Source: a virus. Taken from it: DNA of 64,000 nucleotides. A program made the position numbers and the translations under genes. Below, one piece after another: positions 4,997 to 63,800 of the stretch. Below the pieces are notes generated by a model. The model ran no database searches, had not been told where the DNA came from, and saw nothing but the letters and a program-made list of their open reading frames with translations. Positions within the stretch are counted from its first letter, which is position 1. Each line of letters opens with the position of its first letter. Location: positions 1-64,000 of IMG/VR virus record IMGVR_UViG_3300021963_000034; one strand, 5' to 3'.

Positions 4997-5399
4997 ATAG
5001 ACACGGATGGTCTATAACAGCACTGGTCGGGAGCAAACCCCTTTATGTCAAAAACAAGTATCTTAAGATACATTGGAAACTCTCTCCTTATCGTTGGTTA
5101 TCAAATCATGTTATGGGGAGATTTCAAATATGGACTGCTAGTAAAGTTTATTGGTGGTGCTTTAACAATACCGTTTGCGATAAAACTAAAACTCTATGAT
5201 GTTTTAGTTTTATGTTTGTTCTTTTCTGTAAATGAATTAGCAAAATTATCGCAACTTTTCCTAGTTTCTTAAAACTAGGTGGTGGAGTCAAATGACCCTC
5301 GTTTGGTTTCTTGCTTTTCCATAAAAAAGCAAGTGGTGCGGATGGGACTCTCTCCCGCCTGGTTTCCAATTTCCAGTCAAAGAATTGGTGGCGAGCCTG
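4997..5399 (+). ncRNA. cyanophage structured RNA of manA/wcaG type, with ORF 5045-5272 lying inside it
   Basis: Hairpin ATAGAC/GTCTAT then TGGTCGGG..CCC (4997-5041); three stem-loop modules each followed by TGGYG (CTAG/CTAG, CTTGC/GCAAG, CCAATT/AATTGG; 5258-5399); near tRNAs and upstream of sugar-nucleotide genes, the context described for these motifs. Exact family uncertain. Confidence 0.65.
5045..5272 (+). CDS. small multi-TM membrane protein
   Basis: ORF track; three hydrophobic segments. Confidence 0.7.
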   Translation: MSKTSILRYIGNSLLIVGYQIMLWGDFKYGLLVKFIGGALTIPFAIKLKLYDVLVLCLFFSVNELAKLSQLFLVS

Positions 5400-5408
5400 A
5401 ATACTATA

Positions 5409-31989: not shown

Positions 31990-32033
31990 GGTAAACAAAT
32001 GTTACGAACCCTAACGGATCTGTAACATTGTCC

Positions 32034-32112
32034 ACTCCCATTAACCGAGACCTATGGGGAGTATAAAAACGTCTCTCATACCCACAGTGGAGGGTGCTGT
32101 GGGGTATAATTG
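32034..32112 (+). ncRNA. PhotoRC-II-like RNA motif in the psbA leader
   Basis: CTCCCCAT/ATGGGGAG stem whose loop GAGAC can pair with downstream GTCTC; second stem CCCACAG/CTGTGGG around GAGGGTG. Confidence 0.7.
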
Positions 32113-32156
32113 TATCAGTTCGTCCCCCCGAACTTTTAACTAACTCTCTTAAAAAA

Positions 32157-39689: not shown

Positions 39690-40016
39690 ATGGGAAAGCA
39701 TTATCTACTTAACTTGTATGGATGCTCGTTTGTCCTTTTGGACGACGAGCGTTGTCTTATAGACTTACTAGAAAACGCAGCAGTAGCAAGTGGTGCTACT
39801 GTGGTTCAAACTATCTCAAAAAAGTTTGAACCACAGGGAGTTACTGTTATTTGTTTATTGTCTGAAAGTCATATTAGTATTCATACTTGGCCTGAAGAAG
39901 GTAAGGCAGCAGTGGACGTTTATACCTGTGGTGATTGTAATCCAAAGATTGGGTGTGATATGATTATCGAACAACTCTTTGCACAGAACCATACATTAAG
40001 TTATATTGAACGGTAA
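39690..40016 (+). CDS. speD: S-adenosylmethionine decarboxylase proenzyme
   Basis: GKH, FEPQGVT, LSESHISIHTWPE, DVYTCG. Confidence 0.95.
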   Translation: MGKHYLLNLYGCSFVLLDDERCLIDLLENAAVASGATVVQTISKKFEPQGVTVICLLSESHISIHTWPEEGKAAVDVYTCGDCNPKIGCDMIIEQLFAQNHTLSYIER

Positions 40017-40026
40017 CAAAAGTTAC
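40013..40026. promoter_or_regulatory. NtcA box
   Basis: GTA-ACAAAAGT-TAC (GTA-N8-TAC) upstream of TATAAT at 40059. Confidence 0.6.
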
Positions 40027-40073
40027 AAAAGTACTTGTATAGATAATGTAACTAGAGGTATAATAATCCTCTA

Positions 40074-40377
40074 CCGTTCATCCTATGACTAAAGCACTCT
40101 TGCTTTTAGCATGGGTTCCTTTCCTCTTTGTTTCAGCGCCACAAGCATCTAGCATCCAACAGGTTGCAGTTTCTTGTGACACCGCGATGGAACTAATGGA
40201 CATCGTTAAAAACGGCGATGTAGTATCACAAAAGACAGAGGACCGATTGTTATTAGAACTCCGAAAGGATTTTATAGTAAAGTGCTAAAACCTAATAGGA
40301 CGGAAGTAAGCCGACGCGGAACGGATCGTTCATTCGCTATTCGCAAATAGCGAACGCAAACGCCGACTGAAGGAACG
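40074..40377 (+). ncRNA. tandem glutamine riboswitch (glnA/Downstream-peptide type); aptamer 1 encloses an ORF
   Basis: Aptamer 1 CCGTTCA-TCCTAT[...]ATAGGA-CGGAAGTAAGCCGACGCGGAACGG (40074-40324); aptamer 2 CGTTCA-TTCGCTATT/AATAGCGAA-CGCAAACGCCGACTGAAGGAACG (40327-40377); precedes a DUF4278-like gene. Confidence 0.8.
40085..40288 (+). CDS. small secreted two-Cys protein nested in a riboswitch loop
   Basis: ORF track; signal-peptide-like N-terminus. Confidence 0.7.
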   Translation: MTKALLLLAWVPFLFVSAPQASSIQQVAVSCDTAMELMDIVKNGDVVSQKTEDRLLLELRKDFIVKC

Positions 40378-40408
40378 CTCTTTAACCTAAAAAACTAAGG
40401 AGAACCCA

Positions 40409-40546
40409 ATGTCTAGAGTAGTATATCGTGGTGTTGAGTATGACACCCAAAAGCGTCTTGAGTATCAACAACAAATGATGCAGCAACCCCAACAATACAA
40501 CGAAACCTATCGTGGTGTTAAGTTTGTAAAGGAGGGGCATAAATGA
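40409..40546 (+). CDS. DUF4278-like peptide (two YRG motifs)
   Basis: MSRVVYRGVEYD...TYRGVKF; AAGGAG RBS; not in ORF track. Confidence 0.85.
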   Translation: MSRVVYRGVEYDTQKRLEYQQQMMQQPQQYNETYRGVKFVKEGHK

Positions 40547-40641
40547 AGAAACTAAACTTCCTTCAACTCATTAAAGAGCAAAAACAAAAAGAAGAGAGGC
40601 GTCAAAAAGCATCTCTTGCTACTTTAGTAGCAGCAAAATAA
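40543..40641 (+). CDS. 32-aa basic peptide
   Basis: MKKLNFLQLIKEQKQKEERRQKASLATLVAAK; GGAGG RBS. Confidence 0.6.
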   Translation: MKKLNFLQLIKEQKQKEERRQKASLATLVAAK

Positions 40642-40644
40642 TTT

Positions 40645-40683
40645 AGAGAGGGACTTGACTCCCTCTCTTTTTTTATGTATAAT
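40645..40683 (+). terminator. terminator with the -35 of the next promoter in its loop
   Basis: AGAGAGGGA-CTTGAC-TCCCTCTCT + T-run; TTGACT-N17-TATAAT. Confidence 0.75.
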
Positions 40684-63518: not shown

Positions 63519-63800
63519 GCGAGTATGGTGGAATCGGTAGACACACCAGACTTATGAAAATTGAGCCTCATTTAGGAAACTTTATGAGTGTAATTCCTCA
63601 AATTCGGTGAAACCTGTAAAATGGCAATACCGAGCCAAGCATCGCAAGATGAAGGTGTAGAGACTAGACGGGGAACACCTAAACCAAAAGGTATGGTGAA
63701 GGTATAGTCCAGACCACAAACCGAAAGGGTAGTGAAAACTATAGTGGTACGAAAATCTGTTGGGCGTATGCCCGTGGGAGTTCAAGTCTCCCTACTCGCA
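63519..63800 (+). tRNA. trnL: tRNA-Leu(UAA), split by an intron (exons 63519-63553 and 63752-63800)
   Basis: GCGAGTA/TACTCGC acceptor; joining exons restores CAGA-CTTAAAA-TCTG, a variable arm and GTTCAAGTC. Confidence 0.93.
63554..63751 (+). mobile_element. group I intron (IC3-like, 198 nt, no ORF)
   Basis: Follows exon U, ends in G; core AAATTCGGTGAAACC, GGCAATACCGAGCCAAG, GTAGAGACTAGACGG, GAAGGTATAGTCC. Confidence 0.92.

Follow-up and report, generated by a model that had tools for sequence, protein, structure and literature searches.

The locus described here raises the question of whether a riboswitch can carry a complete protein-coding gene inside one of its helices and, if so, what the sensor and the gene have to do with each other. 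The window, i.e., the whole stretch of 64,000 nucleotides that was analysed (positions 1 to 64,000 of IMG/VR record IMGVR_UViG_3300021963_000034), comes from a T4-like cyanomyophage; the record is 153.6 kb long, about 72% complete, and contains one glutamine-riboswitch locus. Besides this locus the window encodes a wcaG RNA (window 5302–5402, 101.9 bits), a PhotoRC-II RNA (window 32023–32117, 79.4 bits), tRNAs, speD, thyX and phoH, and a group I intron (62.9 bits) lies at window 63544–63733. The order at the locus is speD, a GTA-N8-TAC box, a TATAAT hexamer, the split riboswitch with the gene here called ORF-A, a gene for a 45-aa peptide, a 32-aa ORF and a terminator. The features are as follows.

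39690–40016: speD.
40013–40026, plus strand: candidate NtcA-type box GTA-N8-TAC, read from the sequence, 32 nt upstream of TATAAT.
40035–40, plus strand: possible −35 element, TTGTAT.
40053–40073, plus strand: stem TAGAGG/CCTCTA with the −10 hexamer TATAAT (40059–64) in its loop, read from the sequence.
40075–40079, plus strand: P1 5′ strand CGUUC of the outer glutamine core, invariant in 67 of 70 ORF-A loci.
40081–40086, plus strand: P2a 5′ strand UCCUAU, which includes the A and U of the start codon and pairs with 40295–40300.
40083–40114, plus strand: hairpin H1, 13 bp, with the AUG paired to the CAU of codons 9–10 (RNAalifold, 38 unique loci).
40085–40288, plus strand: ORF-A, 67 aa, with a signal-peptide-like N-terminus and invariant Cys31 and Cys67.
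40200–40221, plus strand: hairpin H3 (ACAUCGUU/GGCGAUGU) inside ORF-A (RNAalifold).
40295–40300, plus strand: P2a 3′ strand AUAGGA, invariant in 67 of 67 loci.
40300–40308, plus strand: unit 1 core ACGGAAGUA, which fits the RF01739 consensus and has the same letters in S-CREM1.
40309–40315, plus strand: first strand of the shared helix, AGCCGAC, pairing with 40362–68.
40318–40331, plus strand: GGAACG-GAU-CGUUC; in a tandem arrangement the P1 3′ strand of unit 1 and the P1 5′ strand of unit 2, in an interlaced one a local hairpin that is the P1 of the inner core.
40333–40354, plus strand: P2b hairpin, 9 bp, loop CGCA.
40362–40368, plus strand: second strand of the shared helix, GCCGACU, with compensatory changes.
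40369–40377, plus strand: GAAG-GAACG, conserved core and distal P1 3′ strand.
40378–40402, plus strand: CUCUUU (40378–83), which can pair with the Shine–Dalgarno (SD) sequence AAGGAG (40397–402) of the next gene, conserved in most loci.
40409–40546, plus strand: double-YRG peptide of 45 aa, DUF4278/IF17-like (phrog_5049, E 4e-10; Pfam DUF4278, E 0.003, below the cut-off).
40543–40641, plus strand: basic ORF of 32 aa that overlaps the stop of the DUF4278-like gene (ATGA), with no family match in Pfam or PHROG.
40645–40675 (also given as 40645–68), plus strand: intrinsic terminator.

The promoter was called from the consensus −10 only, and the transcription start is a predicted one. The stem around it covaries among loci (AGAGG/CCTCT, AGGGG/CCCCT, AGGAG/CTCCT), in an arrangement at 40053–40073 that we take to resemble the promoter-stem-loop cassettes of T4-type phages. 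An NtcA-type box also precedes the riboswitch in S-PM2, DSL-LC02, S-CREM1 and P-TIM68.

At this locus the core of a glutamine riboswitch closes its P2 helix around a complete gene. CCGTTC (40074–79), a single A (40080) and TCCTAT (40081–86) lead into ORF-A, whose ATG (40085–87) begins inside TCCTAT and whose TAA lies at 40286–88, and the riboswitch resumes with ATAGGA (40295–40300) and, further on, GGAACGG (40318–24). The P2 loop is precisely where the interruption of 208 nt falls. Two of the six base pairs of P2 involve the A and the U of the start codon, and the stop codon ends 7 nt before the P2 3′ strand. An initial annotation, made from the same letters, had proposed such a nested gene, with its AUG overlapping the 5′ strand of P2 and without an SD; letters and coordinates agree with it, no purine-rich SD being found before the ORF-A ATG, and homology to uninterrupted units now places the gene in the P2 loop. 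Uninterrupted units occur at the same place in S-PM2 (where speD lies upstream as well), S-CREM1, P-TIM68, S-CAM7, DSL-LC02 and S-SRM01. The flanks of the gene match the annotated glnA riboswitch of S-CREM1 at 9 of 9 bases (40075–40083) and at 86 of 88 (40298–40385, from GGACGG to the end of unit 2), and a GAAA loop stands there at the position of the window's gene, so that S-CREM1 supplies a natural counterpart of the deletion of the insert that had been suggested as a check. BLAST alignments to relatives begin precisely where the 3′ half resumes. The pattern CGTTCATC..ATG occurs once in the window, against 0.17 occurrences expected by chance.

An Rfam scan of the window, at the gathering threshold and at E ≤ 10, gave no match for the split unit, because the 53-position model cannot span an insert of 208 nt. 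Unit 2 (40325–40381), whose P2 loop of 4 nt (CGCA) is as initially annotated, scores 33.1 bits against RF01739 (E 3e-5), below the gathering cut-off of 35 bits, and the uninterrupted unit 1 of DSL-LC02 scores 35.6 bits. Compared with the family part by part, both strands of the P1 helix CGUUC/GAACG are present and invariant, with two identical GAACG copies as possible partner, and the junction sequences (the A after P1, ACGGAAGUA and GAAGGAACG) are present when compared with the printed consensus. A local short P3 hairpin between GUA and GAAGG was not found; a helix of 7 positions between the two units is found instead. A single-unit relative (L046) has ORF-A in P2 and then the canonical P3 (GGC/GCC), with no second core. 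Both the minimum-free-energy (MFE) and the centroid structure of the single sequence close P1 and P2 over ORF-A (z −3.35). Binding of glutamine by the gene-bearing units is a prediction.

The layout is conserved. Among 70 IMG/VR loci in which the ORF-A start is complete, ORF-A is flanked by these two halves in 67, which also have a second unit, and AUAGGA does not change even though its spacer to the stop codon ranges from −3 to +9 nt. Neither P1 nor P2a varies inside the ORF-A family, so the case for their pairing there rests on conservation and on other families. In one lineage ORF-A and hairpin H1 remain, but the 3′ half, the second unit and the peptide genes are gone, and only in this lineage is the P1 5′ strand mutated (to AGUUC); the protein is therefore not dependent on the switch.

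A neutral DNA pattern was used to sample IMG/VR junctions more widely, and 100 of those sampled were usable. Unit 1 bears a gene in 24 of the 75 that could be resolved and is short in 51, unit 2 bears one in 38 of 83 and is short in 45, and at 8 sampled junctions both units do; P2a and P2b, each either empty or gene-bearing, occur in all four combinations. At least four families of nested proteins occur, each with a hydrophobic N-terminus and two cysteines about 35 residues apart. ORF-B (50–59 aa) occupies the P2 loop of unit 2 in DSL-LC02, S-SRM01 and 424 IMG/VR stretches. ORF-A and ORF-B gave no BLASTP match and an hhalign probability of 0.9%, and common ancestry of the two is not supported despite the similar cysteine spacing. 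Family C (L169, L251, L275, L267, L281) is found in unit 1 or in unit 2, a sign that the two P2 loops may exchange genes; family D is represented by L192, L223, L241, L258 and L273.

The pairing of P2 could be followed in 38 unique gene-bearing copies of unit 2, an unbiased sample. P2 positions 1–5 are paired in 100, 100, 100, 97 and 89% of them, three or four pair types being seen where positions vary, and the values for slid controls are far lower; the covariation, for which the initial annotation had asked in relatives with and without the insert, holds across gene-bearing and empty units together. The AUG begins 3–5 nt into P2 in all 38 copies. In 34 of the 38 the ORF runs on, always in the same frame, for 16 nt of the core, and the C-terminus DAKAD is therefore encoded by the aptamer itself; in ORF-B, (I/W)DAKAD and the stop codon are encoded by AUAGACGCAAAAGCCGACUGA (L001 1242–1394; L006 1071–1238; the L043–L086 set). 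One ORF-B copy, in L135, has a premature stop (41 aa) and retains the aptamer halves.

The initial annotation had described two aptamers side by side. Two units are indeed present, but a simple tandem is unlikely, and they are probably interlaced cores joined by a shared helix, formed by the seven nucleotides that follow GUA in unit 1 (40309–15) and the seven that precede GAAGG in unit 2 (40362–68). Across 126 unique units the common pair AGCCGAC/GCCGACU is replaced by AGACAAC/GUUGACU, GGACGAC/GCCGCCC and CGCCGAC/GCCGACG. In the test of this helix 98 of 147 cells were paired, compared with 90.9 ± 2.4 in shuffles, of which 8 in 2000 reached the observed value, and other registers failed the same test; these statistics ignore relatedness, and 93 of the 126 units carry one identical sequence pair, so the evidence for the shared helix is moderate. 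The nested fold then consists of an outer P1 (40075–79/40373–77), P2a around ORF-A, the shared helix, an inner P1 formed by GAACG-GAU-CGUUC (40319–31), and P2b, and its outer junction is closer to the canonical consensus than that of either tandem unit. Interlacing also bears on the P1 that had been written as CCGTTC/GAACGG: its strands are present and invariant, but the 3′ partner at 40319–24 may be the wrong one, since in interlaced units the distal GAACG (40373–77) can take its place. Nearest-neighbour folding does not separate the tandem from the interlaced P1 pairings; the MFE structure of the full leader contains the GGAACG-GAU-CGUUC hairpin, and the linker between GGAACG and CGUUC is always at least 3 nt. 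An extra hairpin lies within this short loop in L037 (about 1745–1790) and in L110, insertions that fit the segment being a capped helix.

ORF-A contains RNA structure of its own. In H1, 99% of cells are paired and one pair shows compensatory synonymous changes (AU 30, GC 4, GU 3), the energy of the hairpin being about −13.5 kcal/mol. H1 competes with P2a for 40083–86, and in the folding model the two appear about isoenergetic, with mean state energies over 38 loci of −69.3 kcal/mol for P1 with P2 and −68.0 kcal/mol for P1 with H1. H1 may not belong to the switch, because it persists in the lineage without the riboswitch. H3 has two pairs with compensatory changes (three compensated cells), no broken cell and a synonymous diversity of about zero. 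The invariant GUUCC (40115–40119) and GGAAC (40189–40193) inside ORF-A can pair with each other, and each mimics a strand of the aptamer P1, which makes decoy pairings possible.

How might such an RNA work? The reading that we lean towards, with some reserve, is that a two-core sensor with ORF-A in its P2 divides expression between ORF-A and the IF17-like peptide, in a direction that is uncertain. The second unit would most likely be folded inside the first, which would put two sensor cores on one RNA upstream of the IF17-like DUF4278 peptide. A ribosome initiating at the ORF-A AUG would cover the entire leader of 13 nt, the P1 and P2 strands included, and one terminating on ORF-A would cover AUAGGA; with the P2 strand covered in this way, ORF-A should not be translated while the outer core is folded, nor the outer core fold while ORF-A is translated. 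A folded core stabilised by glutamine should, conversely, stop new initiation on ORF-A. At the other end of the leader, CUCUUU (40378–83) could mask the SD AAGGAG (40397–402) of the DUF4278-like gene, a pairing that is present in the MFE structure of the full leader. In known glutamine riboswitches the ligand makes the ribosome-binding site of DUF4278 genes accessible and so switches these genes on (PMC6212724), and it is for this reason that ORF-A and the IF17-like peptide are taken as the two alternatives: ORF-A would be favoured at low glutamine or under active translation, and the IF17-like peptide at high glutamine. A switch between the nested secreted protein and the downstream DUF4278 peptide had already been proposed in the initial annotation, which had also held that the ligand-bound fold hides the AUG. 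The AUG is part of the P2 5′ strand, but H1 would be an alternative closed state of similar energy that hides it as well, so the sign and size of any effect on ORF-A are uncertain.

A broader and more tentative suggestion is that the locus is a two-input RNA gate of cyanophages, in which the interlaced glutamine sensor and the ribosome traffic through the genes nested in P2 might together choose, during infection, between secreted disulfide proteins and an IF17-like inhibitor of the host glutamine synthetase.

The arrangement could also be explained without any coupling. Since the P2 loop faces away from the ligand pocket, a gene could ride there as a passenger under a common promoter, the switch controlling the DUF4278 gene only and ORF-A being constitutive or controlled by H1. 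The variable P2 loops of uninterrupted units, the modular presence and absence of nested genes and the lineage in which ORF-A stands with H1 and without a riboswitch all fit this explanation. We nevertheless consider it rather unlikely, as the AUG always lies within the P2 5′ strand without an SD of its own, P2 is sometimes lengthened to 7–20 bp across the first codons, the genes in unit 2 enter the core in a fixed frame, and ribosomes physically have to melt P2.

Less probable still is that the insertion disabled unit 1, leaving an outer core that is a relic and an inner or second unit that alone senses glutamine. On this account the two halves persist because they overlap the 5′ UTR of ORF-A and the helix partner of unit 2; the 3′ half does supply the shared-helix strand required by the other core, and covariation is absent within the ORF-A family. 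Against this, no other role is known for CGUUC or for the AUA of AUAGGA, and both are nonetheless invariant over a dS of about 0.45, P2 covaries across gene-bearing units, and the 5′ CGUUC is altered only where the 3′ half is missing.

That the 208 nt are a structured, non-coding expansion of P2, to which blocks lacking synonymous change and two covarying hairpins might point, is very hard to reconcile with a dN/dS of 0.34, indels only in threes, a frame open for 66–70 codons in at least 246 clusters, a signal-peptide-like N-terminus with two invariant cysteines, and at least three further unrelated-looking ORF families of the same protein design at the same site.

By its pattern of substitution, then, ORF-A is a real gene under purifying selection: the dN/dS just given is a median, at a dS of about 0.45, over homologues of 66–70 aa, and three blocks of the gene have almost zero synonymous change. 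The product matched no family in Pfam or PHROG, a tblastn search of 50,697 phage records gave no match, and a protein atlas search returned only unnamed clusters, with scores below 0.9. Among 185,579 genomes of cellular species a single match was found, on a 3.8-kb contig (L167) in an Acetobacteraceae MAG bin, which is probably misbinned phage DNA. The AF2 model of the protein is of low confidence (pLDDT 57), with helices at 31–42 and 52–66; a fold search from it was set aside, this pLDDT being too poor.

Single contigs in RNA libraries span ORF-A, both units and the peptide gene, which weakly suggests one transcript; all of these runs are contigs and show no start, end, strand or level. Upstream of 40064 nothing was matched in two of three riverine RNA runs and the third has a little over speD, and none of the three extends past 40642. 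Two RNA contigs that end at 40064 were not accepted as a mapped transcript end, as there was no DNA run for comparison.

Among the known systems that come close to this layout is the type 1 glutamine riboswitch (RF01739; the Synechocystis gifB leader, PMC6212724). Shared with it are the core sequences CGUUCA, ACGGAAGUA and GAAGGAACG, the three-way junction of P1, P2 and P3, the position upstream of a putative DUF4278/IF17-like gene and the SD-masking segment beside P1. In contrast to it, a gene of 204 nt here lies within P2 and has its AUG in the helix itself, a further helix bearing a second, circularly permuted core takes the place of P3, and the split version is undetectable by the Rfam model. 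The type 2 glutamine riboswitch (Downstream-peptide motif, RF01704), which accompanies short DUF4278 peptides in picocyanobacteria (PMC2864571, PMC6698751), has the core in common, and unit 1 of relatives also matches its model at 25–29 bits; in RF01704, however, GGAACG is part of a hairpin loop and engages in a pseudoknot, and a nested gene has not been described for it.

In cyanophages such as S-CREM1, glnA RNAs have been listed simply as glnA (PMC9964418), and a survey of 2017, which found glutamine aptamers in only two cyanophage genomes, came to the conclusion that riboswitch use by phages is rare (PMC5473149). No report of a gene nested in a glutamine aptamer turned up in a literature search, in keeping with the initial annotation, whose author knew of none. 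Riboswitches are usually described as non-coding leaders, whereas about a third to nearly half of the sampled IMG/VR units enclose a gene, and these gene-bearing units are missed by standard covariance models. The nested proteins, in at least four families without assigned function, are new targets. If the proposed coupling is true, the locus would be a naturally occurring design with an aptamer helix that serves at the same time as translation-initiation region and has an entire gene as its loop, and it would point to a phage circuit that reads the nitrogen status of the host.

Translation of short ORFs embedded in a leader (mgtL, mgtM, mgtP) also selects between alternative RNA folds in the Salmonella mgtA and mgtCBR leaders. 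These short ORFs encode regulatory leader peptides of fewer than 20 codons and are not known to specify conserved secreted-type proteins or to lie inside an aptamer helix; ORF-A, with its conserved protein of 66–70 aa, is not a short regulatory ORF of the mgtL type, which has no conserved product. The other likeness is to group I and II introns that have ORFs in peripheral loops (PMC3984707): in these, too, a functional RNA fold accommodates an entire gene, with long-range helices closed over it. The introns are, however, mobile ribozymes that carry genes for homing endonucleases or maturases, whereas here the fold is that of a metabolite sensor, and the start codon of the gene lies in the closing helix itself.
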